Assembly: GCA_963722305.1 (NCBI GenBank)
Contig: CAVRKE010000001.1
Location: 309,549-373,548, forward strand
Source of the DNA: Candidatus Levyibacteriota bacterium
Lineage (GTDB): Bacteria > Patescibacteriota > Microgenomatia > Levybacterales > UBA12049
Reading direction: 5' to 3'
Length of the DNA: 64,000 bases
Shown: piece after piece, positions 23,748 through 46,743 of the stretch
Position numbering within the stretch: the first letter of the stretch is position 1
How the letters are laid out: each line of letters starts with the position of its first letter
Program-made: the position numbers and the translations under genes
Notes under the pieces: model-generated
Databases searched by the model: none
Seen by the model: the letters and a program-made list of their open reading frames with translations, nothing else
What the model was told of the DNA's origin: nothing

Positions 23748-24413
23748 ATGACACAAAGCGTTTTAATTGTCGGGGAAAAAGAAAAAGCCAGGGAGAAAGC
23801 CTTAAACATTGCCCGGGAAAATTCAATTTCCCGGTTCGACATTGAAATAATCGAAACGGAAAAAGCGGTCGGGATAGGGGACATTCGACGTTTGCAGAAA
23901 AAGATTTGGCTCAAGCCGATTAAAAGTGAAATAAAAGCGGTAATTTTGGAAGCGTTTTATGAGATGACGGTGGAAAGCCAGAATGCCTTCCTGAAAATGT
24001 TGGAAGAACCGCCTGCCAATACAATTGTGATAATTCTTGTTTCCTCTTTGGATTTTTTACTTCCGACAGTCCTCTCCAGATGCAATTTAATTAACCTTAA
24101 TCAGCTCAAGAATCTTTCAGACGAAGATATGGAAAGTAACCTGAGATTAATTCTTGACCTTAAAAACCAAGGACACGCAAACGCATTAGTGCTGACCCAA
24201 AAGAATTCAAAAGATAAAGAAACCGCCTTGCAATTTTTAGAGAATTTAATAGTGGCCGCACACCAGGCCTTAGAAAGTAATACCGCTGAATTCTCGACTG
24301 AGGATTTGCGAAAAATTCTAAAGAATTTACAGGCAACTTATACGCTGATTAAATCAACCAACGTCAATGTCCGCTTTGCCCTGGAGAATTTATTTTTGAA
24401 CTTCCTTATTTAA
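23748..24413 (+). CDS. holB: DNA polymerase III delta-prime-like subunit
   Basis: AAA+-like fold with ...AFLKMLEEPP...TIVIIL...LSRCNLINL (SRC motif) typical of HolB. Confidence 0.7.
   Translation: MTQSVLIVGEKEKAREKALNIARENSISRFDIEIIETEKAVGIGDIRRLQKKIWLKPIKSEIKAVILEAFYEMTVESQNAFLKMLEEPPANTIVIILVSSLDFLLPTVLSRCNLINLNQLKNLSDEDMESNLRLILDLKNQGHANALVLTQKNSKDKETALQFLENLIVAAHQALESNTAEFSTEDLRKILKNLQATYTLIKSTNVNVRFALENLFLNFLI
24365..24403 (+). repeat. Direct repeat, copy A (the holB 3' end); the partner is at 25886-25924
   Basis: 39 nt, 36/39 identical: CAATGTCCGCtTTGCccTGGAGAATTTATTTTTGAACTT. Confidence 0.85.
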
Positions 24414-24457
24414 AACCCATAGTTTTATTTCCCGGCTAATTTTGCTATAATCGAAAA

Positions 24458-24907
24458 ATGATTAATGGATGGATGATTGTCCCTACATCAGACGGATTTA
24501 AATTACGAACAGAAGAAGCAATCGCCGGGCGAACTAACGGTGCTATTCTTTATACTGAAACATGGGGCGAACGTGATGTTCGGACTCGATTTTCCGGAGC
24601 TTTTGATTTAGGGGAAGGAAGCAAATATTACGAATTTAGCCTTGAAATTGATCAATCAGCAAGCATAGGTTTACCCTTTTCGCAAATTCACGTAGGTTTC
24701 AATCAAGAACTTCTCGGGGCAACGGCGCTCTCAAAAAGGGCACGCAAGAAAGCAATTGAATTAGCCGCAACCCTTCCTGAGGAACTTAAAACACTAGGAT
24801 CAAGGTTAGACAAAAGAGAACTAGCGGAAGCATGGCGAAAGACACTTGAAATTTACGATGAAATACCCCATGGAGAATCTGCTTCTCCTCAAGGAAGAAT
24901 AAAATAA
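24458..24907 (+). CDS. Hypothetical protein (149 aa)
   Basis: ORF preceded by an extended -10 TGCTATAAT at 24434. Confidence 0.4.
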   Translation: MINGWMIVPTSDGFKLRTEEAIAGRTNGAILYTETWGERDVRTRFSGAFDLGEGSKYYEFSLEIDQSASIGLPFSQIHVGFNQELLGATALSKRARKKAIELAATLPEELKTLGSRLDKRELAEAWRKTLEIYDEIPHGESASPQGRIK

Positions 24908-24970
24908 GCACGATAAGTTCTAAATCTCTACAAGTAAAAGCTCACGTGTATAATCTGCTAAAATAAAAGC

Positions 24971-25873
24971 ATGAATTTATCTACAAACAGACAGGGAGAG
25001 TTATCGGTACTTTCGGAGGCTGCCCTGTGGGGACTGTTTCCGGTTGTTACCGTTTTATCGGAAGACAAGGTTGCACCGCTGGTGGCTTTGGGATTTAGTA
25101 CTCTCTTCGCCTGCATATTTTTTGCCGTAGTTTTAACCCTGAAGAAAAAATGGAAAGAGTTGCTGCAAAAATCCGCGCTTTCGGATATTTTAATTTCAAC
25201 CTTACTTCTGGGCATAATTTATTACGTTCTGACTTTTTTTGCCCTTCTGCACACCAGCCCCGGCAATGCCAGCATTATTGGGGTGGTAGAAATATTTTTC
25301 AGTTTTCTGTTCTTCCATGTATGGCGTAAAGAAGAACTGGTGAAATGGCACGTTGTCGGCGCAATCTTTATGGTAATCGGAGTCATCATTATTTTTTCCC
25401 CGAATTTTCGCCAGTTTCAAATCGGTGACTTATTAATTTTGCTGGCAACCGCAATTGCTCCTTTCGGCAATTTTTTTCAAAGAAGAGCCAGAACAAAAGT
25501 TAGCAGTGAAAGCATCTTGTTTATCAGAACTGCCATCAGCGCAGCAGTGATTTTGTTTATGGCGCTTTTACTCGGTAATTCTTTTTCGGTGCGCGGACTT
25601 TCCGACATTTGGCTGTTGCTTATTATTAACGGCGCGGTTATTTTGGGATTTTCCAAAATTCTCTGGATTGAAGGGATTCACCGCATTAGTGTTATGAAAG
25701 CTAACGCTTTGGCAACCGTCGCACCGCCCACAACTTTAATTTTTGCCTGGCTCATATTGCAAAAAGCTCCAACTATATACCAACTATTTTCCTTTGTGCC
25801 GATATTTATCGGGGTAATATTTTTAAGCATTAACAAACGGGTTTCAAAGCAGGAAGCCGAACAACACGATTAA
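24971..25873 (+). CDS. EamA/DMT-family transporter (10 TM)
   Basis: Two repeats of 5 TM helices; about 300 aa. Confidence 0.6.
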   Translation: MNLSTNRQGELSVLSEAALWGLFPVVTVLSEDKVAPLVALGFSTLFACIFFAVVLTLKKKWKELLQKSALSDILISTLLLGIIYYVLTFFALLHTSPGNASIIGVVEIFFSFLFFHVWRKEELVKWHVVGAIFMVIGVIIIFSPNFRQFQIGDLLILLATAIAPFGNFFQRRARTKVSSESILFIRTAISAAVILFMALLLGNSFSVRGLSDIWLLLIINGAVILGFSKILWIEGIHRISVMKANALATVAPPTTLIFAWLILQKAPTIYQLFSFVPIFIGVIFLSINKRVSKQEAEQHD

Positions 25874-25885
25874 ATCAAGCATTTC

Positions 25886-25924
25886 CAATGTCCGCATTGC
25901 TTTGGAGAATTTATTTTTGAACTT
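25886..25924 (+). repeat. Direct repeat, copy B (a duplicated holB 3' end)
   Basis: See copy A; it lies immediately after the EamA gene stop. Confidence 0.85.
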
Positions 25925-25955
25925 TTAGGAAAAAGGTGCTATAATCTACAATACT

Positions 25956-26225
25956 ATGAGTCGCTTAGAGAATGGGGCAACAGCGGGACATTTTTTTGAA
26001 GATGGAGAAGATAGTACCGCACTACTTGGCAGAGCAGGGCAATTGATTGAAATTGAAGAAATTCTTCAACAGGGAGGAGTTCTTCCGGCAATCGAATATC
26101 GTATCGGCACCGACGCAAATAGACTTTTAACAGCGGGCGATTTACCTCTTATCGGCGCGGCGATCGACATAATCTCTCAAACAATTGCACCATCGAGCGC
26201 TGACATTGCAGCAATTCGCTACTAA
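25956..26225 (+). CDS. Hypothetical protein (89 aa)
   Basis: ORF 13 nt downstream of GTGCTATAATCT (the same box as at 28412). Confidence 0.3.
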   Translation: MSRLENGATAGHFFEDGEDSTALLGRAGQLIEIEEILQQGGVLPAIEYRIGTDANRLLTAGDLPLIGAAIDIISQTIAPSSADIAAIRY

Positions 26226-26275
26226 TCGGATAGTGTCAGAGAATTTGTTGCTGAACAAGAAACTTTTCGGGGAAC

Positions 26276-26539
26276 TCAATGCTTAAAGTTACTATGTTCA
26301 AACTGAGCGCCGTCTTTTGTAACAATAAAGTCTACGTCCCGAGTATACGCGGGTTTATCTCCGACTGCGGGGATTTCAGTCCTGGTTGAAAACCTAACTT
26401 CTTCTTGCTCTACTCTAGAACAGATCATTACTTGCGGATTAGGCATTACTATTGGTAGAGAAGGCTCCGGAGCATGTAAATCGGAAATTTCTAAGCGCGG
26501 TGCCCTAGTGCCAGCACTGATATCTATATGAACCTCCAT
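26276..26539 (-). CDS. Hypothetical protein (87 aa)
   Basis: ORF only; about 50% GC, higher than the surrounding sequence. Confidence 0.3.
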   Translation of the reverse strand: MEVHIDISAGTRAPRLEISDLHAPEPSLPIVMPNPQVMICSRVEQEEVRFSTRTEIPAVGDKPAYTRDVDFIVTKDGAQFEHSNFKH

Positions 26540-26805
26540 CCAGTAACATCCAGGTAAGCCTCGACCAACCTTAGGGGATTTTTACCTTCACTCTTAGCTA
26601 CACTTGGTCCGTTTTGCATTAGCGGACAGGTTGCGCCGGTAAGCCGCATTATGGTTCTGACGTCATCTGGAGTTAAAGCCGATAATGGTTTAATGTCTGT
26701 AGTTCCTGCTGCTAATTCGGCAGCTGCTGTCTGATCTGGCCTTGGTGCTTCTGGTGGTCTTGCCATAATTACTTGGGGCAGAATAAAGCGATTATAAAGA
26801 GCCAA
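26524..26805 (-). CDS. Hypothetical protein (93 aa)
   Basis: ORF only; overlaps the next ORF by 16 nt. Confidence 0.3.
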   Translation of the reverse strand: MALYNRFILPQVIMARPPEAPRPDQTAAAELAAGTTDIKPLSALTPDDVRTIMRLTGATCPLMQNGPSVAKSEGKNPLRLVEAYLDVTGWRFI

Positions 26806-26827
26806 AATGCGGATGTCAAGAACAATT

Positions 26828-27268
26828 TTAGCCGATGGTTTGCTGGCCGAGGCTTTTTCTGATGGCCGACTCGATTACTCGTTGGCCGACCACAATGTCG
26901 TGTTTTGTTTGCTCGGAAAGATTTAATTTGGGAACTTGTTTAAAGCTAAACCAGGCAAACCGGCCTTCTTTGGCTAACATTTTTTTGCCGACTCTTTTCA
27001 CTTCGGCATAATAGATACTGTGGTCTTTATCCGTTCCGCTGGCATAACGCGTATAAATGTAGAAAATTTTTTTGAGGCTGATTTTTAGGTTTAAGTGTTT
27101 TGAAATTAAATCTTTGAATGTTTGTTCACCCGAAGCTTCTGCGCCAACCTCATTTTCCAGTAAGGCCCATGGACCATTTTCGTCGGCGTTATTTTGTTGT
27201 TGCAAGAGAATTTGCTGAGACAGGGGATTGTATAGAAATCCGCTTGCATAAAAATCATTATGCATCAA
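26828..27268 (-). CDS. Hypothetical protein (146 aa)
   Basis: ORF only; no clear motif. Confidence 0.35.
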   Translation of the reverse strand: MMHNDFYASGFLYNPLSQQILLQQQNNADENGPWALLENEVGAEASGEQTFKDLISKHLNLKISLKKIFYIYTRYASGTDKDHSIYYAEVKRVGKKMLAKEGRFAWFSFKQVPKLNLSEQTKHDIVVGQRVIESAIRKSLGQQTIG

Positions 27269-27367
27269 TATATTATACCACTATTTGAACCGCTTTTGTC
27301 GGGGAAAATAGAGCCAGGATTTATCTCTTATTGACAAGGTAAATCAATAACTTTATACTCCTAAAAC

Positions 27368-27577
27368 ATGAGTCGATGGATAGAAGCAGCCAAAGCGTGG
27401 AGGATAAAAGGCCAGGCCGCACAGACCGGTATTGATGCAACAGCACCTCATTTGCCTAGTTACTTAGCTCGATATGAATACGGGCAAGGTATTTATGAAG
27501 GAGTAACGATTTATATCAATGCTGCTCGTAAAGTTATTGGAGGTGTTGGAAAAGTTCTGCAAAGGCCTAAATCATGA
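27368..27577 (+). CDS. Hypothetical protein (69 aa)
   Basis: ATGA overlap with the following ORF suggests translational coupling. Confidence 0.3.
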   Translation: MSRWIEAAKAWRIKGQAAQTGIDATAPHLPSYLARYEYGQGIYEGVTIYINAARKVIGGVGKVLQRPKS

Positions 27578-27996
27578 CTGAAATAAGAAGAACCAGACGG
27601 CTTGACCACATTACTTCACCGCTACCTGATGGGGAACTGGATGACATTTTAGCTCAACTCGACACAATTTCGGCTCACTTAAGTAATCCGAAAAATCCCA
27701 CCTTAGGTAATCCAGATAATCCCGCCGGAGAAAGAGCCGTTTATGAGGCAGAACAATGGGGATGGCAAAAATACTTACAGACTTTAGGCAGAACACCACA
27801 TTTACCGCCGGCAGAACAGACCGAAAGTGCCGAAAAGCTTGTTCGCTATTTTTGCGCAATTGGAGCCTCGGGTGGAATCAATCAATATTCGCCCAGAGCC
27901 CTCAGGGAATATTTTCTGAATGTTCATTTGGACGGGTCGCTACTTATCACTGTCAATGAAAGCGCCGTTAGACGAACGGGCATCCCTCAACCATAA
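27574..27996 (+). CDS. Hypothetical protein (140 aa)
   Basis: ORF only. Confidence 0.35.
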   Translation: MTEIRRTRRLDHITSPLPDGELDDILAQLDTISAHLSNPKNPTLGNPDNPAGERAVYEAEQWGWQKYLQTLGRTPHLPPAEQTESAEKLVRYFCAIGASGGINQYSPRALREYFLNVHLDGSLLITVNESAVRRTGIPQP

Positions 27997-28044
27997 CCGC
28001 GGTAGAGATACGGAGGATTTGATTTTTAAGCCTCTAGTGATATA

Positions 28045-28374
28045 ATGCTGCGTATGCCAAAAATTACTCCAGACAGACCAAGCGCAGAGCGACAAATGGC
28101 AATCAAACTAGCAATGACGGCAGAAGCAAGACCGCTTATTTTAGATACGCTTATATCTTTCAGCCATGTTGGAACAATAACGGTACGAGCAGTTGATTTG
28201 CGCACAGAAATTCCAAATATCCTTAAAGCTGAAAAGAAAGAGGGGGAAGAACCGCCGGAAGAAATATTTTCTATGGCCCTGGATCTACTTGTAGAAATGG
28301 GCCAAGTAACCCGCGTACCACGTCCTACTACTGACGGGGGTACTGAAAACTGGTATGAACGAGTCCAACGATAG
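28045..28374 (+). CDS. Hypothetical protein (109 aa)
   Basis: Preceded by TGATATAAT at 28033. Confidence 0.35.
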   Translation: MLRMPKITPDRPSAERQMAIKLAMTAEARPLILDTLISFSHVGTITVRAVDLRTEIPNILKAEKKEGEEPPEEIFSMALDLLVEMGQVTRVPRPTTDGGTENWYERVQR

Positions 28375-28390
28375 CGCCGTTCTCTCCGGG

Positions 28391-28425
28391 AAAAATTTGG
28401 GTTTATAGTCCTGCGGTGCTATAAT
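28391..28425 (+). promoter_or_regulatory. Island promoter motif copy 1 (AAAAATTTGGGT -35 ... 17 nt ... TATAAT); transcript for the 28437 ORF is near-leaderless
   Basis: A-tract plus TTGGGT at 28397-28402, a 17-nt spacer, TATAAT at 28420-28425, ATG at 28437. Confidence 0.5.
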
Positions 28426-28436
28426 CTGTTCTAACT

Positions 28437-28997
28437 ATGAGCGGAGAAAGAGGTAGTACCGGACATGGTTCTCAAGATGATGAAAATCAGCCTGGCGCGG
28501 AAAGAGACGGACCGTTCGCACCGCTCGAGGCAATTTTCTTACTAATTCAAAAAGACTCGGACAAGAAGCATATCTCCCCAAGAGAAAATCCTACAGCTGT
28601 TACATTTGGTCTTTACGTAGACACCGAATTTCGTAAATATATCTTGCATATTAGTCCTGCACACATCGTCGATGGAGTATTTAACGAAGCCGCCTTAAAT
28701 TTATACGAAGTGCGAACTGATAAAGTCCAGGGCAAACATGGCCAAGAAGTTGTTTGGACCAGACAACATATGCAGCAATGGCTGGTAAGAACAACCTGGG
28801 TTGACGGCGAACCTAAAATTACCGACAAAGATATCGATCCTATCATAGTTCAAACCGACGGAAATATTATCGGGCTACTCCCAATCGCAGAACGAGCAAG
28901 AGAAATCCTCCAAGAAAGGGGAACGAGAACCAGTAATCAACAAGCATTCGGCGCCGTTTTTATACCAAAACCTCCCAATGTTGGTAGTATTAATTAG
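28437..28997 (+). CDS. Hypothetical protein (186 aa)
   Basis: ORF with the motif promoter. Confidence 0.45.
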   Translation: MSGERGSTGHGSQDDENQPGAERDGPFAPLEAIFLLIQKDSDKKHISPRENPTAVTFGLYVDTEFRKYILHISPAHIVDGVFNEAALNLYEVRTDKVQGKHGQEVVWTRQHMQQWLVRTTWVDGEPKITDKDIDPIIVQTDGNIIGLLPIAERAREILQERGTRTSNQQAFGAVFIPKPPNVGSIN

Positions 28998-29057
28998 TTG
29001 AGGAGAAATCCCGCGGGCCGAAGATACCCATTGAGCAAAAAATTTGAGGCGGAACCT

Positions 29058-29537
29058 TTAATGAACCCAATTAACTACTTTCGGCACTTTAGCAAGTCTT
29101 AATAAATTCTGTTCACCTACTTGCGGCACATTAGCAAGTCTGAATAAATTCCGTTGTATTTCGGCTGGTGTTAAAGGCGTATATCCTTCCGGCAAATTAC
29201 CTGCTATAAATCTTTCCATTAATCTTCCTTGCTCATCATATCGATAAATAATCGTGTTACTGGGAACCACGAACCGCTCTCCGTCAGACCCCCTGAATCC
29301 TACGTATTCTCCGTCTCGATTGTGTATCTGTACAATCGGTCTTCCGGTTTCTTTCGATGTGAATGTTCCAAACTCATAACCTAGTAGACGAGACATTCTC
29401 TCGTCTGTTTGGGCTAATTCTTGTAACTGAGCATGTCTTTCGGCCGCTTGTTCTTCTGGATTATCTCCTTCTAGCATATTACTTAAAATTATACTACAAG
29501 ATGCACCAAAAAACAAAAAAATGTAGGCCGTAGGCAC
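29058..29537 (-). CDS. Hypothetical protein (159 aa; probable start at the internal MLEGDNPEE) with a C-terminal internal repeat
   Basis: C-terminal NLFRLANVPQV / NLLRLAKVPKV, encoded by an imperfect 30-nt direct repeat at 29086-29150. Confidence 0.4.
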   Translation of the reverse strand: MPTAYIFLFFGASCSIILSNMLEGDNPEEQAAERHAQLQELAQTDERMSRLLGYEFGTFTSKETGRPIVQIHNRDGEYVGFRGSDGERFVVPSNTIIYRYDEQGRLMERFIAGNLPEGYTPLTPAEIQRNLFRLANVPQVGEQNLLRLAKVPKVVNWVH

Positions 29538-29553
29538 ACAAACGTCTAAAATT

Positions 29554-29582
29554 TGGGGTTGAAAACTTAAAGTTGTATAATA
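29554..29582 (+). promoter_or_regulatory. Island promoter motif copy 3 (TTGGGG-17-TATAAT)
   Basis: AAAATTTGGGGTTGAAAAC...TATAAT; the ORF-track TTG start at 29573 lies inside the -10 box, so the true start is probably the GTG at 29588 (leaderless). Confidence 0.5.
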
Positions 29583-30106
29583 GCCTCGTGAAAATTAATT
29601 TTTATCCCGAACAGAATAATCTAAAATTCGCAAAAGCCGCCAAAGAATACCGGATGATTTGGGGGAAAGAAGGCAAAAAAATAACCGCAACGATTGAAAA
29701 AATAAGCGGTTTAAAGTTTAAAGAAAAGATAATCAACGCCTTAATCTATGACGAAATCTCATATTCCGTACCGTTGCAACTTCAGGCCGAGATGTCAATT
29801 AAACATAAAAAGGGCACTTTGGTTCATGAGCTGTGCCACCGACTGGTGGTAGGAAACCATATTAAGCTCAAAGCCGAAAAAACCTACAACAGCTGGAACA
29901 TGGCTATTCATAAACACATTGACCTGATTCTTTACGACATTCTGGTTGAGCTTTACGGAGAAAGTTTTGCCAAAGAAGAAATAAAATATGAAATCAGCCT
30001 TTGGAACCAAAAAGGAGTTAGCCCTTATAAAATTGCCTGGGACACCGTTTTAAAAATGGCCAAAGAACAGCGCCGCCGGGAATTTCAAAAATATCTTAAA
30101 AAATAA
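29573..30106 (+). CDS. Hypothetical protein with an HExxH (HELCH) motif; the start is probably 29588
   Basis: A single HExxH at residues 85-89; Lys-rich; no other identifiable domain. Confidence 0.45.
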   Translation: MYNSLVKINFYPEQNNLKFAKAAKEYRMIWGKEGKKITATIEKISGLKFKEKIINALIYDEISYSVPLQLQAEMSIKHKKGTLVHELCHRLVVGNHIKLKAEKTYNSWNMAIHKHIDLILYDILVELYGESFAKEEIKYEISLWNQKGVSPYKIAWDTVLKMAKEQRRREFQKYLKK

Positions 30107-30379
30107 CTGCGAAAATCGAGCGAAAGTCGAGCGAAAGCGAGATGCCCTAAGACAAATAAAATTTGGGTTGCCCCATTACGGCATGTTCTAACGAAATATT
30201 TCAATATGTCTATTGACAAATAATTATTTATAGGCTATCTTGTTTAAGATAATAAAGATCCTGCCCAATATATATTATCGGCGGCAATGAAATATATTTT
30301 GAGCTTTGAAACACCCGGTTTTTAAACTTAATTCAAGTTTTAAAAAGGGTGTTTTTTTAAAAGGAAAGGAGGTGAAAAA

Positions 30380-30826
30380 ATGAAAAAAATATTACTATCT
30401 TTAGTTTTAAGCATCGCAGTTTTAAGCGTTGCTTTGGTAACAACGCCTAAAGTCCAGGCGGCAACATGCAACGGAAATCCATACATCATAACCTATGTAG
30501 GAATTAATTTTACACTAACTAGTAAAACCTGGTGCTCCACATATAATTACGAAAAGGGAGATAGTTGGTATTCAATTGCTGTAGCAAATGTGGGTGAAGC
30601 CTGGAACGACAATATAGGTTCCATAAAAATGGTCGGCTGGCCTTATGGTAGCGTACTTCATTATTATCTTGATCAAAATTACAACCTTAGTTGTACTAAT
30701 TGCATGAAACTTACGACTACGGTTAACTCAACTCCTGAGACCATCCCGAATGTTTATGCTTATCATTGGCCAACTGGTCTTGGAAATATTAACACAATCT
30801 CATCTTTTGATGGAATAAGTCCATAA
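30380..30826 (+). CDS. Small secreted Cys-containing protein (148 aa, Sec signal peptide)
   Basis: MKKILLSLVLSIAVLSVALVTTPKVQA/ATCNG; strong RBS AAAGGAGGTGAAAAAATG; 4 Cys in the mature part; terminator downstream. Confidence 0.6.
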   Translation: MKKILLSLVLSIAVLSVALVTTPKVQAATCNGNPYIITYVGINFTLTSKTWCSTYNYEKGDSWYSIAVANVGEAWNDNIGSIKMVGWPYGSVLHYYLDQNYNLSCTNCMKLTTTVNSTPETIPNVYAYHWPTGLGNINTISSFDGISP

Positions 30827-30867
30827 AAGAATGGGGGAATTATTGAAATAGAACTGGCTTTTCTTTT

Positions 30868-30912
30868 CGTTTGCCAAAGAAAGGCCGGTTTTGGGTGTTA
30901 AAAATCAATTTT
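30868..30912 (+). terminator. Rho-independent terminator after the secreted-protein gene
   Basis: GGCTTTTCTTT-tcgtttgcc-AAAGAAAGGCC stem followed by GGTTTTGGG. Confidence 0.45.
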
Positions 30913-30951
30913 AATCTCGGGTCAGAGGCGTAGAAAATTTGGGGCGGAAAA

Positions 30952-31284
30952 CTATTCAGGAATTTGCAGTCCAACGTGTTGTTCGAGACGGACGATTCTT
31001 TTTCTTTGTTGCATCTGTTCTTCGTCAAGCATCCTCAGCATTGTGCTTTGGTCGCGCTTTACCTGAGAAACATCTCTTTGAATTTTCTTAATCTGATTAG
31101 CTTCATCATCAAGCTTAATTTCAACATTTTTAGTTCTGTTATCCAGCGCACCGATATTCGCTTGAACTTGCATTCTGGATAATCTAATTTGGCTTTCCAA
31201 AGTTTGGGTTGAATCTTTAACTTCTACTTCTACCTCCTGGCGGACAACTTTTCTAATCTGATCTAAATCATTTTTCGTTAACAT
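30952..31284 (-). CDS. Hypothetical charged coiled-coil protein (110 aa)
   Basis: Heptad-like Q/E/K/R-rich sequence. Confidence 0.4.
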   Translation of the reverse strand: MLTKNDLDQIRKVVRQEVEVEVKDSTQTLESQIRLSRMQVQANIGALDNRTKNVEIKLDDEANQIKKIQRDVSQVKRDQSTMLRMLDEEQMQQRKRIVRLEQHVGLQIPE

Positions 31285-31419
31285 AGAATAAAAAGTATAA
31301 TGCTGGTTAGATAACCTGTCAATCTATCAAACATTATCAAAAAAACTGTCGAGAACCGAGAAGATTTGTGGCGGCAACAATCTCGGCGCAAATATAAATT
31401 TGATATACTCAAATAGCTT

Positions 31420-32262
31420 ATGTGGATTTTATTTACCTTATTAACAGCAGCCGTTTGGGGAGTAGGGCAGGTGTTTGCCAAAAAAGGCTTAAGTCATACA
31501 ACACCTCTTTTTAATAACCTGTTGGGAGCTTGCCTGTTTTTCATATTGGCGGTTCCTTTTGCTCTATCAAACGGAGCTAATTTTTCCGAAGTCCCACGGA
31601 TTTTTCTGCCTACCTGCGTCATTGCCGCTTTACTGCTTGTCTACTACTATGTAATAAACCTAGAAAAAGTATCTTTATCCGGTACTATACAGTCCAGCTA
31701 TCCGTTATTTACAATTATTCTGTCTTTTATCTTTTTGCACGAAAACCCAAGCCTTCTGCAAAAATTGGCTGCGTTGATAGTTTTGGCCGGTACGGTAATT
31801 TTGGCTGCCGGAGAAGACATTGTTCTCTCCAAAAGAATCCGTTTCGGCAGATGGTTTTGGATAGCGCTTGCCGGAGCGGTAATGGCAGGAACCAGTGATT
31901 TTTTCGCCAAAACTATCTTAAACCACACCAATACTTACTCTTATATCTTAACTTATGCTATCGCTTATATGTGTGTAGCTGTTCTTAGTGCTTTAATTGA
32001 CAAAAACGGCAGAAAATTACCAAAACTTAACCAAAAAATTATTCCCACATTCTTGGGCGTTTCAATGATGGAACTGGGGACAATTACATTTTATCTGGCA
32101 ATCTCTTTAGGGCTGGTTTCGGTCGTCAGTCCGGCCAGTTCGTTTTATGTCGGGATAACCGCGGTGTTAGCCTGGATTTTCTTAAAGGAAAAAGTGAATA
32201 AACTCCAAGTGTTAGGAGTAATCCTGTCGGCCATAGGCGTCATATTTTTGGGGATAATGTAG
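31420..32262 (+). CDS. EamA/DMT-family transporter (second copy in the island)
   Basis: 10 predicted TM segments; 280 aa. Confidence 0.6.
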   Translation: MWILFTLLTAAVWGVGQVFAKKGLSHTTPLFNNLLGACLFFILAVPFALSNGANFSEVPRIFLPTCVIAALLLVYYYVINLEKVSLSGTIQSSYPLFTIILSFIFLHENPSLLQKLAALIVLAGTVILAAGEDIVLSKRIRFGRWFWIALAGAVMAGTSDFFAKTILNHTNTYSYILTYAIAYMCVAVLSALIDKNGRKLPKLNQKIIPTFLGVSMMELGTITFYLAISLGLVSVVSPASSFYVGITAVLAWIFLKEKVNKLQVLGVILSAIGVIFLGIM

Positions 32263-32319
32263 CCGCGGCAAAAAATGGAAAAATTCGGGGCGGAAAGTTA
32301 TCTATGATAAGATATTTTT

Positions 32320-32574
32320 ATGACTGCGACATGGCCATTGGAATTTCCGGGCATTAGAACAACAGATAAAGTTACGCCAAAACCTGCAGCTAAAACCGCA
32401 GTAATTCCAAAAACAGATACGGCAAAAACCAATAACGCCGCCAGCGCCATGCTTGCCGCCGAAGCCGCAGTCGCTATTTCAACGGTCAGTGGAAAACGGG
32501 TTACAACCCAAGAAACGCTATCGCTGAGCTCTCTTCCTCTCCAAAAACTGGCACCGAGACGGAAAAAAATCTAG
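32320..32574 (+). CDS. Hypothetical protein (84 aa, Ala/Thr/Lys-rich)
   Basis: ORF preceded by motif copy 6 (TTCGGG-17-ATAAGAT). Confidence 0.3.
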   Translation: MTATWPLEFPGIRTTDKVTPKPAAKTAVIPKTDTAKTNNAASAMLAAEAAVAISTVSGKRVTTQETLSLSSLPLQKLAPRRKKI

Positions 32575-32594
32575 GAGAAAATTTGGGGCAGAGC

Positions 32595-32999
32595 CTATTG
32601 TCCTGTTACCAATATTGCTAATTCTCTTCTACTTCTCGTATGCGTATCAAAATTTGCATCAACCCCTTTAATTCCTCTTGTATCCAAACCAATTACCCTT
32701 GAATTGGGAAAAGATTCTCTGACTCTCTCAATCAATGTTTCTTCCGGAACAGAAAATGGGACTTGTCGAAGTGGACCGCCTAATATTACAACATCGACCA
32801 CTTCGCCTTGTTTGCTTAATTGCTGTACATGTCTTTCCGCAGCGTATGAATTAGTAGCTGCTCCCACAACCCGATGTCCTTCTCTATTTAATGCATCAGT
32901 AATACCTTTGAGGTCAGCAAAATCAGGTATTATTACCAATACTCCTGCTTCTTTCGGCATAATGGAGGGAATTATACTACAAGCTAGAAAATAAAACAA
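32595..32999 (-). CDS. Hypothetical protein, possibly a degenerate receiver/Rossmann-like fold (probable start at the internal MPKEAG at 32960)
   Basis: VLVIIPDF...VVDVVILGG alternates beta and alpha elements, but the Asp pocket of a true REC domain is absent. Confidence 0.3.
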   Translation of the reverse strand: MFYFLACSIIPSIMPKEAGVLVIIPDFADLKGITDALNREGHRVVGAATNSYAAERHVQQLSKQGEVVDVVILGGPLRQVPFSVPEETLIERVRESFPNSRVIGLDTRGIKGVDANFDTHTRSRRELAILVTGQ

Positions 33000-33051
33000 A
33001 ACGGAGAAAAACTTGGGACCAGGTTGACTTTCGCCTTCCTAATAATTATAC

Positions 33052-33390
33052 TTGCTAGCCATGTTTAGAGGAGAACTCGACGAGGCATACACTCGGCCCT
33101 TTCCGGGCAGTGATTTCTTTACAAGCGAACAGGCCAGACACATTAATGCAGCGCTTGATTTTGCCTGCGAATTCGACAATTTGCACGGGAAGCCATTAGA
33201 TAAAACAATAAAGATAAGCGCAGCGCAAAGGCGTTTAATTATGCGCGCCAACGCTCAGGTAGTCTTCCAAACAGCACTGGCGCTCGGAGAAACAATCAAA
33301 GGAGATGAAATTATGAGAATACTTGAAGTCGGCCACCCTAGAGAGATGCTTCCCATCGCCACGCGCAGCCACCTTTTTGAAAGATCCTAA
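33052..33390 (+). CDS. Hypothetical protein (112 aa)
   Basis: ORF preceded by TTGACT-17-TATACT. Confidence 0.35.
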   Translation: MLAMFRGELDEAYTRPFPGSDFFTSEQARHINAALDFACEFDNLHGKPLDKTIKISAAQRRLIMRANAQVVFQTALALGETIKGDEIMRILEVGHPREMLPIATRSHLFERS

Positions 33391-33467
33391 AACTAAATTT
33401 AACCGGGGCCAAGCGAAAGCGAGGTGCCCGGAGGCAAAAATTTCGGGCGGAAAACCCATAGTTGTAT

Positions 33468-33510
33468 AAGTTACGAAATGTCGAATATGTTTCGTAACTT
33501 ATACACTCTT
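33468..33510 (+). other. Perfect 15-bp inverted repeat hairpin (GTATAAGTTACGAAA-13 nt-TTTCGTAACTTATAC) directly downstream of motif copy 9
   Basis: Stem arms 33468-33482 and 33496-33510; the left arm overlaps the TATAAG -10 of the motif promoter. Confidence 0.7.
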
Positions 33511-33576
33511 ACCTTCTGAAACTATGATTGGGAATACGTAGAATCGTTTATCAACTTTTTGCTATAATTATCTTAA

Positions 33577-33864
33577 GTGAATATTGTACTTATTACTATT
33601 ATTGTTGGGGTTTTGACGACCATTTTGTCCGTCATTATTAAAATCGTTGGTTTTCCGGATCAGATGGTCAAAAATTTCAAGCGCAAATCCACCGAAGGAG
33701 TCTCCACCACTTTTTACGTGTTATCCGTTATCACTTATATTGTCTGGACAATTTACGGATTGTTGAGAAGTGATATTGTAGTAGTTATATCTCAAGCATT
33801 GGGAATTGTTACCACCGGCATAATTGTCTACCAGATTTTTATTTATAGAAGAAAGAAAAAGTAG
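33577..33864 (+). CDS. SemiSWEET / PQ-loop (MtN3-like) 3-TM sugar transporter
   Basis: 95 aa, 3 TM, with GFPDQMVKNFKRKSTEGVS matching the PQ-loop consensus (G.PQ....K.KS..G.S). Confidence 0.55.
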   Translation: MNIVLITIIVGVLTTILSVIIKIVGFPDQMVKNFKRKSTEGVSTTFYVLSVITYIVWTIYGLLRSDIVVVISQALGIVTTGIIVYQIFIYRRKKK

Positions 33865-33898
33865 ATTTCTACTAGAAATCTACCTCATTTTCTGCTAA

Positions 33899-35941
<2,043 letters not shown>

Positions 35942-36893: not shown

Positions 36894-38913
36894 ATGGATT
36901 TATCTTTGATTTTTCAACATAAACTAATCATTTCGCTCCTCGCCGGAGCCCTTTCCATCGCCTACGCCTTATTCTTAAGCTACAGGGTTTTATCTCATCC
37001 AAGAGGCGATGCCAAAATGAATGCTATTTCCGACGCCATTGCCGAAGGCGCCATGGCTTACATGAAAAGACAGTACACGGTTGTGGCCATTATCGGAGTA
37101 GTGATTGCGGCCATTTTGTATCTTGTTTTTGGAGCCATTACCGCTGCCGGTTTTGCCCTTGGGGCAATTTTTAGCGCGGTTGCCGGAGTGGTCGGTATGT
37201 CGATTGCGGTTCGAAGCAATATCCGCACCGCCCAGGCGGCGAAAAAAGGTTTGGGGGAAGCTTTTGGTTTAGCCTTTCAAGGCGGGACAGTGACCGGTTT
37301 AATGGTGGCGGGACTGGCTTTAATCGCCGTTTCCGGATTTTACTGGGTACTGGAAAGAGTAGCGGGCGGGAATTTACAGCCATTGATCGCGCTTGGTTTC
37401 GGCGGTTCTCTGATTTCGGTTTTTGCCAGACTCGGCGGAGGAATTTTTACAAAATCAGCCGATGTTGGAACGGATATGGTCGGAAAAATTGAGAAGGGGA
37501 TTCCCGAAGACGACCCACGAAACCCCGGCGTAATTGCCGATTTGGTAGGGGATAATGTCGGAGACGACGCCGGCATGGCCGCCGATTTATTTGAGACTTA
37601 CGTCATTACCGCGGTCGCGGCGATGATTTTGGGGCACTTAACTTTCCCGGGAAACGGTGCGGTTTTGTTTTATCCAATGTTAATCGGTGCCATCTCGATT
37701 GTCGCCTCGATTATCGGCACCTGGTTTGTCAGGATGATGGGGAAGGGCGGGGTCATGCAGGCTTTGTACCAGGGACTAATTGTGGCCATGCTGGTTTCTG
37801 TGGCCGGATTTTACCTTTTAACCAACGGCATTTTTCCGGAAGGCTTAGGAAAAATTTCCACTCTGCAGCTTTTTTCAACTTCGCTAATCGGACTGGTTGT
37901 TACTTTAGGCATGGTGATTATCACCGAATTTTATACTTCGAAAAAATTCGGCCCGGTCAAAACCATTGCCAAGGCGTCGACCACCGGACACGGCACTAAC
38001 ATTATTGCCGGCCTGGCAGTGTCGATGAAATCAACCACCGCGCCAATTATTTTAATTGCCGCTGCTATTTTTGTTGCTTATGCTTTGGCCGGACTTTACG
38101 GCGTAGCCATTGCGGCCATGAGCATGCTGTCGCTTTGCGGAATTATTGTCGCCATTGATGCATTCGGGCCAATCACCGATAATGCCGGCGGAATTGCGGA
38201 AATGGCCGGACTTGATCAGAAAGTCCGCGATATTACCGATCCGCTGGACGCGGTCGGCAACACCACCAAGGCGGTAACCAAAGCTTATGCCATCGGCTCT
38301 GCGGGTCTGGCGGCTCTGGTTTTGTTTGCCAGTTACACCCAGGAATTAAAAGTCAGTGTTTTTTCTTTGTCCGACCCGACAGTTCTCGTCGGACTATTCA
38401 TCGGCGGGGCCTTGCCGTATCTGTTTGCCAGTTTGGCAATGGAGGCAGTCGGCAAAGCCAGCGTTTCAATTGTTGATGAAGTCAGAAGACAATTTAGGGA
38501 AATTAAGGGGCTGATGAAAGGCACTGCCAAACCGGAATACGGCAAAGCGGTGGACATTGTCACCAAAGCGGCCATCAGGGAAATGATATTACCAACCGTC
38601 ATCACGGTTTTAGCCCCAATTGTGGTCGGATTTTTATTAGGGCCGAAGGCCCTCGGGGGACTTACTGATGGGCAGCATTATTACCGGTCTGTTTGTGGCC
38701 ATTTCGATGACCACCGGCGGAGCGGCCTGGGATAACACCAAAAAATATATTGAAGAAGGTGCATACGGCGGCAAAGGCGGTTTTGCCCACCAAGCGGCGG
38801 TAACCGGCGACACCGTCGGCGACCCTTACAAAGACACTGCCGGACCGGCAATTAATCCGATGATTAAGGTGTTGAATATCGTTGCTTTATTAATCGCACC
38901 CTTTCTGATCTAA
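36894..38913 (+). pseudogene. hppA: Membrane-bound proton/sodium-translocating pyrophosphatase (V-PPase) interrupted by a +1 frameshift near 38663
   Basis: The N-terminal 590 aa (36894-38735) and the C-terminal 81 aa (38668-38913, ...[15 protein letters not shown]...[18 protein letters not shown]...) are both canonical V-PPase sequence but sit in different frames; deleting one nt near 38663 restores ...LGGLLMGSII... Confidence 0.8.
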
Positions 38914-39005: not shown

Positions 39006-41488
39006 ATGGCTGATATCGGAAAACTACAAAATACGGAAATTGCTTTTGAAATGAAACGCGCGTACTTCGACTACGCCATGTCGGTTATTGTTTCCAGGGC
39101 TCTTCCGGATGTCAGGGACGGATTAAAACCGGTCCACAGACGTATTCTGTTTGCAATGCATGAAATGAATTTGACCCACGCCGCCAAATATTCCAAGTCC
39201 GCCAAGATCGTCGGTGAGGTAATGGGAAAATACCATCCCCATGGAGACGTCCCGATTTACGATTCTTTGGTAAGACTTGCTCAGGATTTTTCGATGCGCT
39301 ATCCGCTTGGTTGACGGGCAGGGAAACTTCGGCTCCATGGACGGTGACCCGCCGGCCGCGATGCGTTACACCGAAGCCAGAATGGCCGCCATCACCGCCG
39401 AAATGATGCTGGACATGGAGAAAGAAACAGTCGATTACATCCCCAACTTTGACTCAACCTTAAAAGAACCGGTTTTCCTGCCCAGCCTTTTGCCAAACTT
39501 GCTGCTGATGGGTAGCGAGGGTATTGCCGTTGGTATGGCCACCAAAATTCCGCCGCATAACCTAGGCGAAGTGATTGACGCGGTCGAGTATTTAATTAAA
39601 AAAGCTAAAATTACCATTGAACCAAGATTTACCATCACTTCCGAAGTTACGGTTGACGAACTGCTGGAACTGATTAAAGGTCCGGATTTTCCGACCGCCG
39701 GCGCAATTTATGACTGGACGGAAATTAAAAACGTTTATACGACCGGCCGGGGCAGAATTATTATCCGCGGTAAAGCCGAAATTGAAGATATCGGACAGGG
39801 AAAGAGTGCCATTATCATCACCGAAATTCCCTACCAGGTCAATAAAGCCTTATTGGTGGCCAGAGTTGCGGAACTGGCCAAAGAGAAAAAGATTGAGGGC
39901 ATTTCCGACCTTCGCGATGAGTCCGACCGGCACGGCATCAGGGTTGTGGTTGAACTAAAAAGAGACAGTGCGCCGAAAAAAGTGTTAAACAATTTATTCA
40001 AATACACCGCCTTTCAGACCAGTTTTCCGGCCAACATTGTTGCTTTGGTTGACGGCACGCCGCAAACCTTGAATTTAAAAACCATTCTGGAAGAATTCTT
40101 AAAACACCGCTACCTGGTAGTCAAAAGACGCAGCGAGTTTGAATTAAGGCAGGCCAAAGCCAGACTGCACATTTTGGAAGGGCTAAAAATCGCGGTGGAG
40201 AATATTGACGCGGTAATTAAAACCATTCGCGAATCCAAAGACCAGGATGATGCCAAGAAAAACTTAATGACCAAATTTAAACTAGTCGGACCTTCAAGCC
40301 ACAGCCATCTTGGATATGCAACTAAGACGTTTGGCGGCGCTGGAACGACAAAAGATTGAAGAAGAATACCAGATGGTTAAAGAAACGATTGCTTATCTAG
40401 AAGATTTACTGGCCCATCCGGCCAAAATTTTAATTGTCATCGGCGAAGAGCTGACCAAATTAAAAGAAAAGTATTCCGACCCAAGACGCACCAAAGTCTA
40501 CAAAAGTAAAGTCGGCGAGTTTTCCGAGGAGGATTTAATTCCCAATGAACCAACCGTGGTCACTCTGACCGATACCGGCTACATTAAAAGGCAAAGTTTA
40601 AATAGTTTCCGCACCCAACAGCGGGGCGGCAAAGGCATTATCGGCATGACTACCAAAGAAGAAGACAATATTGCCGAAATCAAGTCCATCGAAACCCACG
40701 ACAACTTATTATTCTTTACCAATAAAGGCAAGGTTTACCAGATTAAAGCTTACGAAATAAACGAATCTTCCCGAACCAGCAAGGGAACCGCCATTGTTAA
40801 TCTTTTGAATATTGAGGCCGGGGAAAGAGTTGAATCTTTTGTCAATTACACGACTAAAGGCTCGGAAGCAAAATATGTTTTCCTGGCAACCAAAAACGGC
40901 ACCGTCAAAAAAAGCGTTTAAACGGAATTTGAAAATATCCGAAAAAGCGGCATCTTGGCCATCAAACTTGATAAAGACGACGAGTTGGTTTGGAGTAAAT
41001 TAACTAGCGGAAACGACGACATCTTACTGGTCACCAGAAACGGGAAGTCAATCCGGTTTTCGGAAAAATCGGTCCGCGGCATGGGCAGAAACACCATGGG
41101 AGTAAGAGGAATTTTGATTAAAAAAGACGCTAAAGACGACCGGGTTATCCAAATGGACGTTGTCGGCAAAAACTTCAAAGTTGGAAGTGTTTACAATTAT
41201 GGAAAAAGGCTTAGGCAAAAAAACTCCGGTCAACGAATTCCATCCGCAGGGCCGCGGCGGGCAGGGAGTAAAAGTGGCCGAAGTAACCGAAAAAACCGGC
41301 AAAGTGGTACTTCGCAAATCATTCCGGAAGGCTCCGAAGAAGTGATTATTACCTCGCAAAAGGGACAAATTGTCAAACTGGAGGTTGCCTCCATACCCAA
41401 ATTGACCCGAGCCACCCAGGGCGTAATTTTAATGCGCTTTTCCGATAAAACCGACCATGTTGCTTCGGCAACGTGCATTGAAAAGTAA
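39006..41488 (+). pseudogene. gyrA: DNA gyrase subunit A, disrupted by four 1-nt indels and one in-frame TAA
   Basis: Canonical GyrA segments occur in alternating frames: ...[26 protein letters not shown] / VDGQGNFGS...; ...KFKL / SDLQATAILDMQLRRLAALE...; KKSV*TEFENIRKSG...; ...EKGLGKKTPVNEFHPQGRGGQGV... / ...SEEVIITSQKG... Frame changes are at about 39304, 40296, 41170 and 41310; TAA at 40919-40921. Confidence 0.85.
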
Positions 41489-42339: not shown

Positions 42340-43429
42340 GAAAAACTTCTAAGCACCACAATAAAACAGCTCCGTAGAAAACATGCGACTGCAAAAGTAT
42401 TGGAACGCTACTTGGGTTTTTAAGATTGAAGGAGATTAGAACGTAAGAAATAATAAGAATGAGAATGAACTTGAGATTTTTTTTGAAGTTTTGAACATAG
42501 AACAGCGTTGCCAAAAACGGAAACAACATAAACACAAAATGGTGCTGCCAGGAAAAATTATTGACGATTAAATTTAGGCTGATTAGTAAACCCAAATGCA
42601 TATTTTGAAGCTTTTCGCTTTTGCGGTTTTTGAAAATTACCAAGAATGAAATTAAAATAAAGATCAATGATAAAGCATCTTTCAACGCTTCCCGGAAAAT
42701 TCCCGCTGGCAAACTCCTACCTAAAAATCCGGTCAAAGCCTGGTTATAATAAGCGGTTTTCCAGCCGGTCAAAAGCGTTGACAGAAAGTTTTGGTAGAAA
42801 TATAAATTGATTTTTGGTCCAACGAGAACAAACGCCAATAAACCAAACACAAGTAATGAGAGGATAAACACTGAAAGAAACCTCCATTTTTTAGTTAGCA
42901 GAAAATAAAAGGGGATAAAAGCCGGAAACAATTTAAGACTGACTGAAAGCGCAAGTAACGGCGCTGACCAAATAAAATTCTTCTTTTGCTTTAAAAAATA
43001 AATTCCCGCCACGAAAATGAGTAGAATAAAATTATTGATCTGCCCCATCCCTAAAGTAAATTTGACGGGAAAGGAGAAACAGACCAAACCTAAAATTATG
43101 CACCCAAACGTTGAGAAAAGCGGTTGTTTGTAAATTTTAAAAATCAGATACACCGAAAGAAATAAAGAAATCAAAGACAACACTGTCCAGAGCTTTTCGC
43201 TGACCACAAACGGCAGCAAAGTCAGTGAGGAAAAAATAACCATTGCCAATGGGGGATAGATGATACCATGTAGATAAGGGTTAAGGCTTTTTACACCATA
43301 ATAATACTGACTAAAATCCGGATAAAAATTTAGCAATAAACTTTTACAAAGAATCAAAAACGAACCAAGAAAAAATAGCAAAGATAAAAGCTTAATTACT
43401 TTTTGCATAAGAAACACACCTCTTGACAA
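42281..43429 (-). CDS. Polytopic membrane protein, possibly a GT-C-type glycosyltransferase-like protein
   Basis: About 11 TM helices, Phe/Leu-rich; no catalytic motif recognised. Confidence 0.45.
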   Translation of the reverse strand: MSRGVFLMQKVIKLLSLLFFLGSFLILCKSLLLNFYPDFSQYYYGVKSLNPYLHGIIYPPLAMVIFSSLTLLPFVVSEKLWTVLSLISLFLSVYLIFKIYKQPLFSTFGCIILGLVCFSFPVKFTLGMGQINNFILLIFVAGIYFLKQKKNFIWSAPLLALSVSLKLFPAFIPFYFLLTKKWRFLSVFILSLLVFGLLAFVLVGPKINLYFYQNFLSTLLTGWKTAYYNQALTGFLGRSLPAGIFREALKDALSLIFILISFLVIFKNRKSEKLQNMHLGLLISLNLIVNNFSWQHHFVFMLFPFLATLFYVQNFKKNLKFILILIISYVLISFNLKNPSSVPILLQSHVFYGAVLLWCLEVFLIWKDSHKLQRRFPSALKH

Positions 43430-43470
43430 TTTAAGTAATCCGTCCTACTATTATTATATAGTATTTATTT

Positions 43471-44247: not shown

Positions 44248-44347
44248 TTTTATTCTCTGTTTATTGAAACAATACTTAAAAAGGTCGCTTGACAAGAGAA
44301 AAAATAACCTCTACATTATTAATGGACAGAATTTATCGATATTATCT

Positions 44348-44971: not shown

Positions 44972-45019
44972 ACACGCTCAATACGAATTGACATATCATT
45001 CTAAATTAATTAATATTAA

Positions 45020-46650: not shown

Positions 46651-46743
46651 ATGATTTTAAAACTATAAAAATGAGGATAAATACGAAAATTTAGGTCTAA
46701 TGATTATAAACTTTAATTTAGAAAAATACAACCCTTTAGTCGC

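Follow-up and report, generated by a model that had tools for sequence, protein, structure and literature searches.

A directional repeat at the junctions of putative gene cassettes between holB and gyrB in a lineage of Candidatus Levybacteria

In integron arrays, directly repeated attC sites separate cassettes that are mostly single genes, rich in orphans and pointing either way, and the arrays vary between relatives; the attC sites are imperfect palindromes of 57-141 nt that fold as single strands (R''-L''/L'-R'). The minimal mobile elements of Neisseria are alternative gene cassettes that lie between the same conserved genes and are exchanged by transformation and homologous recombination. 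In T4-type phages, the repeats of promoter-early stem-loop (PeSL) cassettes are composites of a sigma-70-type promoter and a stem-loop terminator. They all point the same way and separate small orphan genes in hyperplastic regions that core genes flank; where close relatives differ by an insertion, deletion or replacement, the change ends in these repeats, which are the sole homology between otherwise unrelated modules, and mini-circles have been shown (PMC2839356, PMC4122927). Here we describe a 64,000-nt stretch from a Candidatus Levyibacteriota bacterium (GenBank assembly GCA_963722305.1, contig CAVRKE010000001.1, positions 309,549 to 373,548 of the forward strand; the whole stretch is called the window below), in which an asymmetric motif of ~22 bp, with the core GAAAATTTGG-N4-GAAA, recurs in the interval between holB and gyrB. 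With modest confidence, we favour the reading that the motif is a directional cassette-junction element which doubles as the upstream half of promoters, cassettes being exchanged between its copies in a homology-driven manner.

The host belongs to Candidatus Levybacteria, ultra-small bacteria within the candidate phyla radiation (CPR), as judged by GyrB. In the window and in related loci (given L numbers here), gene order is conserved, comprising type IV pilus genes, pilB, holB, the interval, gyrB, small genes, an H+-pyrophosphatase gene, gyrA, folD, SIMPL and a Xer-like recombinase gene. The interval itself is shortest in L296 (0.8 kb, one gene) and longest in the window (9.5 kb, nineteen genes). 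Conservation ends at the holB stop codon and ~40-60 nt ahead of the gyrB start, and the interval genes are almost wholly different among genomes whose GyrB proteins are 80-91% identical. To the right of a point 42 nt upstream of gyrB, L301 and L299 share 99.94% identity, and to the left of it they are unrelated; the interval therefore varies even within a species. In the window the main parts of the hot spot are:

23748..24413, plus strand: holB (DNA polymerase III delta'), the conserved left border
24414..28374: holB-proximal half of the variable island, nine genes, zero motif copies
28437..33864, genes on either strand: ten single-gene cassettes, mostly orphans, at 28437 (plus), 29058 (minus), 29588 (plus; gene H), 30380 (plus; secreted protein), 30952 (minus), 31420 (plus; EamA), 32320 (plus), 32595 (minus; receiver-like), 33061 (plus) and 33577 (plus; PQ-loop)
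33911..35932, plus strand: gyrB, the conserved right border

An earlier note on this DNA had proposed nine copies of the motif, and a local position weight matrix (PWM) built from these nine gave, in a scan of the 64-kb window, eight plus-strand sites at 17.9-31.3 bits, compared with a background maximum of 16.6 bits; an exact 19-mer, allowed up to three mismatches, matched four times against 0.11 expected. A cross-genome PWM, built from 40 copies in nine genomes, recovers seven secure window copies at 19.6-30.2 bits, all on the plus strand. The repeat is thus real and seven of its claimed copies are solid, but that at 30154 is only half a copy and that at 33003 is unsupported, its 14.7 bits with the local PWM lying inside the background and its cross-genome score being -6.8 bits. 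Between 28375 and 33576, a region with ten genes of which three are on the minus strand, there is one motif or motif remnant per intergenic gap. The copies, each given from its first motif column, are:

28388..28411, plus strand: copy 1, GGGAAAAATTTGGGTTTATAGTCC, 22.7 bits; TTGGGT at 28397-28402, TATAAT at 28420-28425, ATG at 28437
29035..29058, plus strand: copy 2, 20.1 bits; adjoins the stop codon (29058-29060) of the minus-strand gene 29058-29476; no -10 element
29544..29567, plus strand: copy 3, 27.0 bits; TTGGGG at 29553-29558, TATAAT at 29576-29581, GTG at 29588, the start of gene H
30154..30177, plus strand: half copy keeping only the 5' half, TAAAATTTGGG; 17.9 bits with the local and 6.7 bits with the cross-genome PWM; in the gap ahead of the secreted-protein gene
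30930..30953, plus strand: copy 4, GTAGAAAATTTGGGGCGGAAAACT, 30.2 bits, the closest to consensus; its final bases are shared with the stop codon of minus-strand gene 30952-31284
31357..31380, plus strand: possible decayed copy, CGAGAAGATTTGTGGCGGCAACAA, without statistical support (8.6 bits with the local, 7.0 bits with the cross-genome PWM); in the divergent gap ahead of the EamA gene
32276..32299, plus strand: copy 5, 22.1 bits; extended -10 TGATAAGAT ending at 32313, ATG at 32320
32574..32597, plus strand: copy 6, 19.6 bits; its first base is the last stop-codon base of gene 32320-32574 and its right end falls on the stop codon of minus-strand gene 32595-32960
33433..33456, plus strand: copy 7, 24.1 bits; TATAAG at 33465-33470, followed by an open reading frame (ORF) of only 13 codons

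That the motif is confined to the island, as first proposed, holds across the window, where the only comparable match outside is a minus-strand coding site (58681-58704, CCGGAAAATTAGGGATGGAAGCTT, 22.8 bits) on the sense strand inside ORF 57887-59377, probably a coding coincidence. Nine related loci were scored besides the window, eight bearing the motif and one without a copy. Copy number climbs with the number of interval genes, from none in the single-gene interval of L296, through one in L295, five in L297/298 and six in L302-304, to seven or eight in the window and at least eight in L306; the other intervals hold five (L299/300), two (L305), three (L123) and three (L307). At a threshold of 16 bits or more, the holB-gyrB intervals (10 loci, 44.6 kb) contain 41 plus-strand and no minus-strand copies, so that 41 of 41 lie on the gyrB strand, and 188 kb of flanking sequence contains no plus-strand and three minus-strand matches, all in coding regions. 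The core is invariant; its four intervening, variable positions are GGCG or GACG in the window's own clade, and TTTT in a sister clade whose GyrB is ~80% identical. No motif was found in GyrB relatives of 70% identity or less (L122, L124-L201), and the motif is therefore confined to a sub-lineage. A degenerate 19-mer scan of genome contigs gave, among the matches listed, which did not extend to the source genome, single chance matches in unrelated phyla only, and re-scanning those loci with the PWM revealed no clusters; a scan of viral contigs gave 93 single matches and no cluster, and BLAST searches of phages and plasmids gave no match.

The copies sit at the junctions between genes. Inside the motif zones, 40 of the 48 intergenic gaps carry a copy, irrespective of how the flanking genes are oriented (19 of 21 gaps between plus-strand genes, 8 of 11 convergent, 9 of 11 divergent and 4 of 5 between minus-strand genes, three of the last being copies between tandem minus-strand genes in L306). 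A preceding plus-strand stop codon lies -4 to +8 nt from motif column 1 in 16 of 27 cases, and where a minus-strand gene follows, its stop codon starts at column 22-24 in 6 of 12; the element fills the minimal space between cassettes. In the window that codon begins at column 24, 23 and 22 for the copies at 29035, 30930 and 32574, respectively, in agreement with the earlier observation that these three lie just behind minus-strand genes. The broader statement that a copy marks the 3' end of every minus-strand island gene is right for the right half of the island, but not for the minus-strand genes at 26276-27265, which have none.

In comparisons between relatives, homology begins and ends at the copies. 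The match between L305 155-742 and L297 7113-7702 (85.6% identical) comprises exactly motif-H-motif, with unrelated DNA on either side. Similarly, L302 7336-7589 matches L297 5975-6237, i.e. gene A plus the motif, and L302 7573-8171 matches L297 7115-7720; in a multiple alignment, L302 (A-motif-H) tracks the A side of L297 up to the motif and the H side of L297 from the motif on. The switch falls inside the motif, and L297 therefore has 0.9 kb inserted, consisting of two minus-strand cassettes that each carry a copy. Cassette order is shuffled as well. Family B lies to the right of H in L297 and to the left of A-H in L302, the receiver-like gene adjoins H in L305 and is 2.5 kb away from it in the window, and one minus-strand gene is to the right of H in L307 and to the left of H in L306. 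The proposal that the motif copies are cassette boundaries is therefore strongly borne out, including by the comparison suggested with it, i.e. whether copies delimit variable cassettes in related genomes.

A second property of the copies is their placement relative to promoter-like sequences. In the window the arrangements are TTGGGT-17-TATAAT-11-ATG at 28388, TTGGGG-17-TATAAT-6-GTG at 29544, TCGGGG-17-TAAGAT-6-ATG at 32276 and TTCGGG-17-TATAAG-7-ATG at 33433, confirming the geometry described for four copies, with the qualification that the ATG at 33433 opens the 13-codon ORF only. The layout from copy 3 to gene H recurs in L297, L302 and L305. Over the nine motif-bearing genomes, 28 copies face plus-strand genes. 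In 12 of these, TTGGGR is separated by 16-17 nt from a TATAAT that is perfect or nearly so, with a TG extension in 10 of the 12 and the start codon 6-8 nt after the -10 element; in 14 of the 28, the start codon of the plus-strand gene lies at motif column 42-50. The upstream (UP)-element and -35 role initially proposed for the motif is thus plausible for many copies, as judged from their distance to an extended -10 element close to a start codon. The remaining plus-gene copies have either a separate TTGACW -35 element downstream of the motif or a motif-to--10 distance of between 14 and ~45 nt, and the motif, while physically coupled to promoters, consequently has no fixed distance to them. Furthermore, in 12 of the 40 copies the next gene is a minus-strand one, facing the motif with its 3' end, and there is no -10 element; the motif is equally conserved where no promoter exists, the best window copy (30930) being behind a minus-strand gene.

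These data also bear on three more specific proposals. The antisense promoters envisaged behind minus-strand genes are not borne out, since those copies lack a usable -10 element; the three minus-strand genes among the window's cassettes have canonical promoters of their own on the other side, e.g. TTGACA-17-TATACT for 30952-31284. Nor is the secreted-protein gene at 30380 likely to receive a 185-nt leader from a copy at 30157, because this is the half copy and the gene has its own TTGACA-17-TATCTT promoter (30213-30241) together with a Shine-Dalgarno sequence (AAAGGAGGTG), making it a clear exception to the leaderless pattern. That pattern, in turn, is not special to the island. The norm across the window is TTGACA-17-TGnTATAAT, 6-9 nt before ATG, and leaderless mRNAs seem to be the default in this Levybacteria genome because most operon-first genes throughout the window have TGnTATAAT 6-9 nt ahead of the start and no Shine-Dalgarno sequence. 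What is peculiar to the island is the motif, with TTGGGR replacing TTGACA.

The reading that we favour would bring these properties together as follows. The holB-gyrB interval is a hot spot holding a variable string of small, mostly orphan genes in one Levybacteria lineage, and in its gyrB-proximal part nearly every cassette carries one copy on its left, oriented like gyrB whatever the direction of the gene. For a rightward cassette gene the element would supply the upstream promoter half, with its A-tract at about -40 and the TTG of TTGGGR at -35, and an extended -10 element (TGnTATAAT) 16-17 nt downstream and 6-8 nt before the start would imply a leaderless mRNA; a leftward gene would use its own canonical promoter, the element merely abutting its stop codon. 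Exchange between copies would insert, delete and reshuffle cassettes, because the element is the only sequence common to otherwise unrelated cassettes. The likeliest form is homology-driven exchange, or circle excision and re-integration, e.g. after DNA uptake, in the manner of the PeSL promoter repeats of T4-type phages. The sequences themselves show the motif, its restriction to one locus, its single orientation, its occurrence once per gap, the match between homology breakpoints and copies, and the promoter geometry; promoter activity, recombination at the motif and the nature of the enzyme responsible are what we infer from them.

An independent trace of homology-driven insertion in the same island is provided by the end of holB, the last 57 nt of which (24347-24403) are repeated, with 86% identity, at 25868-25924, just after an EamA gene and beyond a 1.5-kb two-gene insert; a shorter third copy (26239-26256) follows the next gene. 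These displaced holB 3' ends look like the products of serial insertions at the holB stop codon.

Several points weigh against the homology-driven reading. No recombination event, product or intermediate was seen directly, and the crossover point inside the motif cannot be located because the motif is conserved everywhere. RecA-dependent exchange would have only 22-45 bp of homology to work with, which is short. Variation is just as great in the holB-proximal half of the island, where the motif is missing, and in one lineage further away the hot spot and gene H are present with no motif. In the closest clade, copies are no more alike within a genome than between genomes, giving no sign of ongoing gene conversion, and the retention of the core across clades with GyrB only ~80% identical suggests a sequence-specific protein reader, which would be superfluous to a homology model. 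Finally, the apparent locus specificity applies to the ~230 kb (233 kb) of these genomes that were scanned. Homogenisation of copies within genomes was considered separately and set aside, as it was not significant in the closest clade and was seen between clades only.

The main rival is a dedicated site-specific system, in which the motif would be an attachment site for integron-like capture by a recombinase encoded elsewhere (for example an enzyme not recognised as such or the one Xer-type tyrosine recombinase, which lies 13 kb away), such that circles with one site enter any resident site. Strictly uniform orientation (41/41), a single site for each cassette irrespective of the direction of its gene (gaps between minus-strand neighbours included), a sharp right edge of the element at column 22-24, and a core conserved across clades despite complete cassette turnover would all be natural consequences of such a system. 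So would the clade-specific motif variants, given that the attC repeats of chromosomal integrons are species-specific, and a conserved Xer-like gene is present in the neighbourhood in the window, L295, L297 and L299. However, no recombinase gene lies inside or beside any array in the window or the nine related loci, and the Xer-like protein scores as XerC/D, reaching 113.8 bits relative to an integron-integrase cut-off of 265. The motif also lacks the dyad symmetry or hairpin on which IntI and the tyrosine and serine recombinases act: when eight copies were folded with their flanks as single-strand DNA, the z-scores were -1.5 to +0.8. In addition, the insertion bounded by copies of the holB end, in the same island, is one that needs no special site. 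On this evidence we consider a site-specific system unlikely. In its fullest form, which we likewise regard as doubtful, it would be a new integron-like capture system with a 22-bp asymmetric, non-palindromic site and an unlinked recombinase, possibly the only Xer-type enzyme of the cell, acting on single-gene circles at a gyrB-side hot spot; the site would double as a -35/UP half, and captured rightward genes would be expressed at once. An attC-like or terminator-like structure was looked for in its own right and discarded, as there was no fold.

A different type of explanation would dispense with recombination at the motif altogether. The motif would be just a promoter part, i.e. a UP-like element plus -35 as mainly read in the earlier note, or one factor's operator, with the copies behind minus-strand genes being relics or antisense promoters. 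The 12 of 28 plus-gene copies with TATAAT at 16-17 nt, the TG extension and a start 6-8 nt on argue for this, as does the sister-clade variant AAAATTTGGTTTTGAAA, which fits the Escherichia coli UP-element consensus at 15 of 17 positions; a TTGGGR -35 element, differing from the TTGACA usual in the window, would fit activator dependence. Against it, 12 of 40 copies face minus-strand 3' ends and have no -10 element, four of them lying between two minus-strand genes, and copies behind minus-strand genes, which include the best in the window, are as well conserved as the others. The distance from motif to -10 element varies from 14 to ~45 nt, many cassettes having a separate TTGACW -35 element, and none of the ~28 minus-strand interval genes uses the motif in reverse, for which the probability would be ~0.68^41 if promoters followed genes. 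The same asymmetry tells against the regulon under one factor offered as an alternative in the earlier note, for which no reversed copy stands upstream of any of those genes: 0 of 41 copies are on the minus strand, compared with ~32% of interval genes, and 12 copies face 3' ends. Moreover, the site assigned to that factor, GGGGCGGAAAAC, is the least conserved part of the motif, the sister clade having GGTTTTGAAA there. We therefore judge a role limited to promoters or a regulon to be quite improbable. Even further from what we would expect to be correct is a protein-bound insulator, i.e. a hairpin-free equivalent of a terminator-promoter unit that would act as a roadblock to read-through from an unterminated upstream gene and would help RNA polymerase at the next promoter. 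Such an insulator would suit plus-strand array genes, which end 0-8 nt before the motif with no intrinsic terminator, and would prevent convergent collisions at the 8 of 12 minus-gene copies that follow a plus-strand gene. However, the four copies between tandem minus-strand genes have nothing to block from the left, three convergent gaps of the motif zones have no motif, no candidate protein was found, and the ends of homology blocks at the motif are left unexplained.

Functions as DnaA boxes, Ter, Chi, KOPS or uptake sequences were discarded because copies occur only in intergenic gaps and within a single 5-kb locus. A conserved site, ACCYCTAGAAATTTGG, occurs at the -35 position of gyrB (33861-33883 in the window, where it forms part of a 10-bp palindrome; in L295-L305, ~40-60 nt ahead of gyrB), and it adjoins the strain-level breakpoint between L299 and L301. 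We considered it as a terminal motif copy and left it uncounted, since its conserved part at the gyrB -35 is CTAGAAA, in a different register. Directly after motif copy 7 there is a perfect 15-bp inverted repeat (33463-33510, GTATAAGTTACGAAA...TTTCGTAACTTATAC) that spans its -10 element and the 13-codon ORF. Copy 7 looks like an orphan promoter that remained after gene loss, and the inverted repeat might serve as an operator or might be a scar left where a cassette gene was lost. Other small repeats adjoin motif copies or promoters, in the window namely TCGAGCGAAAG in tandem and AGCGAAAGCGAGrTGCCC (30115-30156, 33412-33438). In relatives, an element CCRTTCGAY...ACTCAGGATC (L123 2380-2520, L297 9890-9960, L306 9955-9985) is inserted ahead of the -10 element of H or gyrB, separating it from the upstream part of the promoter, which is the motif in L306 and the -35 region of gyrB in L297.

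Nearly all island proteins are orphans, searches of the cassette genes against PHROGs, Pfam and NCBIfam giving almost nothing, and Rfam gave no family over 24000-34500. Gene H (29588-30106) has 98 relatives, all from Levybacteria or Microgenomates; its confidently predicted structure (predicted local distance difference test score, pLDDT, 93) is a small HExxH domain that weakly resembles the catalytic domain of M1 zinc peptidases. Most of these relatives are on very short contigs (0.6-5 kb), as would be expected if assemblies break at a strain-variable, repeat-punctuated locus. Five short contigs with an identical gene H, which there directly follows holB with no motif, were uninformative on junctions. 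The winged-helix-looking gene at 28045-28374 was considered as a reader of the motif and rejected as a conserved factor, there being no homologues in 1.84 billion representatives. In the relatives, cassettes include a TnpB-like gene (Cas12f1-like_TNB; L306 10728-11807) with a motif-like site in front, AbiTii (L302 8976-9917), a HATPase_c_2 and DUF4325 pair (L299 8703-9946) and DUF3800 (L306 8962-9840), and the hot spot partly acts as a defence island.

As to the wider window, an identical GyrB protein is encoded on a 608-kb contig, and an identical 11.8-kb contig was found in an independent assembly. Beyond gyrB, gyrA (39006-41488) is split into four overlapping or adjacent ORFs, compared with a single 825-aa gene in relatives, and the H+-pyrophosphatase ORF (36894-38735) is ~64 aa shorter than the relatives' 677-aa gene and has an odd tail; these breaks may be frameshifts due to assembly errors, or pseudogenes. 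At ~43000-47700 the cumulative GC skew peaks, gene orientation shifts from mostly plus to mostly minus, and the XerC/D-like gene (46744-47718) is found; this region is possibly the replication terminus, with a dif site nearby.

Genomes of the CPR bacteria, or Patescibacteria, are tiny, and these organisms are thought to live as episymbionts; the ways in which they acquire new genes are poorly understood. The locus described here is a concrete, recurrent site of orphan gene turnover between close relatives, with a simple sequence tag at the junctions; among the genes turning over are transporters, a small zinc peptidase and defence-like genes (AbiTii, HATPase_c_2 with DUF4325, DUF3800, TnpB). 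Should the tag prove to be a substrate for recombination, the locus would be a cellular counterpart of the phage PeSL cassettes or a new attC-free cassette system, and the tag would be a handle for finding accessory genes in metagenomes and for understanding why assemblies break there. The motif with its -10 element may also offer a natural promoter module that is compact and suited to leaderless expression in a phylum without cultures. In the literature we found no description of such an element for CPR bacteria, nor of such an arrangement for a cellular genome.

Comparison with known systems narrows how the locus should be classed. The occurrence of the motif in one interval of the 233 kb scanned, and in a single orientation, sets it apart from repetitive extragenic palindromes and bacterial interspersed mosaic elements (REP/BIME), miniature inverted-repeat transposable elements (MITE) and uptake sequences. 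Arrays of clustered regularly interspaced short palindromic repeats (CRISPR) have repeats of 24-48 nt and non-coding spacers of 26-72 nt, whereas the spacing here is 300-1350 nt and is made of genes. Sigma-70 promoters with a UP element and an extended -10 have an A/T tract at about -40 to -55, TTG at -35 and TGnTATAAT at -10, features seen in about half of the copies facing plus-strand genes; the motif differs in its invariant G positions, a conserved GAAA inside the spacer, the variable distance to the -10 element and the copies with none.

With the Neisseria minimal mobile elements the locus shares a hot spot set by two conserved genes (here holB and gyrB), varying whole-gene content, no element-encoded recombinase and the association with type IV pilus/DNA-uptake genes, which in Levybacteria are directly next to the locus; the Neisseria elements differ in having no internal junction motif and usually one alternative cassette, rather than an array of ten. 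The likeness to integron arrays extends to directly oriented sites that separate cassettes of varying content between relatives, genes that point either way and lineage-specific repeat variants. However, there is no IntI, the window's tyrosine recombinase (46744-47718) scoring 253/248 bits as XerD/XerC, and the site is ~22 bp, asymmetric and without a common hairpin, in gaps that are often only 45-60 nt. Each Levybacteria cassette also has its own promoter, whereas integron cassettes rely on Pc, and the site is on the 5' side of plus-strand cassette genes.

The PeSL cassettes are similar in having short conserved repeats in a single orientation between small orphan genes, with conserved core genes flanking a hyperplastic region, and in that indels and replacements between relatives end in the repeats, the sole sequence that unrelated modules have in common. 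The differences are that no stem-loop terminator is joined to the Levybacteria motif, that PeSLs are in phage genomes whereas the present repeats are on a CPR bacterial chromosome with no phage similarity, and that the mini-circles shown for PeSL are hypothetical here. By sequence, a putative promoter coincides with the repeat (TTGGGR-16/17-TGnTATAAT) in the 12 of 28 plus-gene copies, the others having a separate -35 element and 12 of 40 no -10 element; only the upstream 22 bp are conserved here, and these are present also without any promoter. The locus is best classed either as PeSL-like junction repeats or as an attC-free cassette array.

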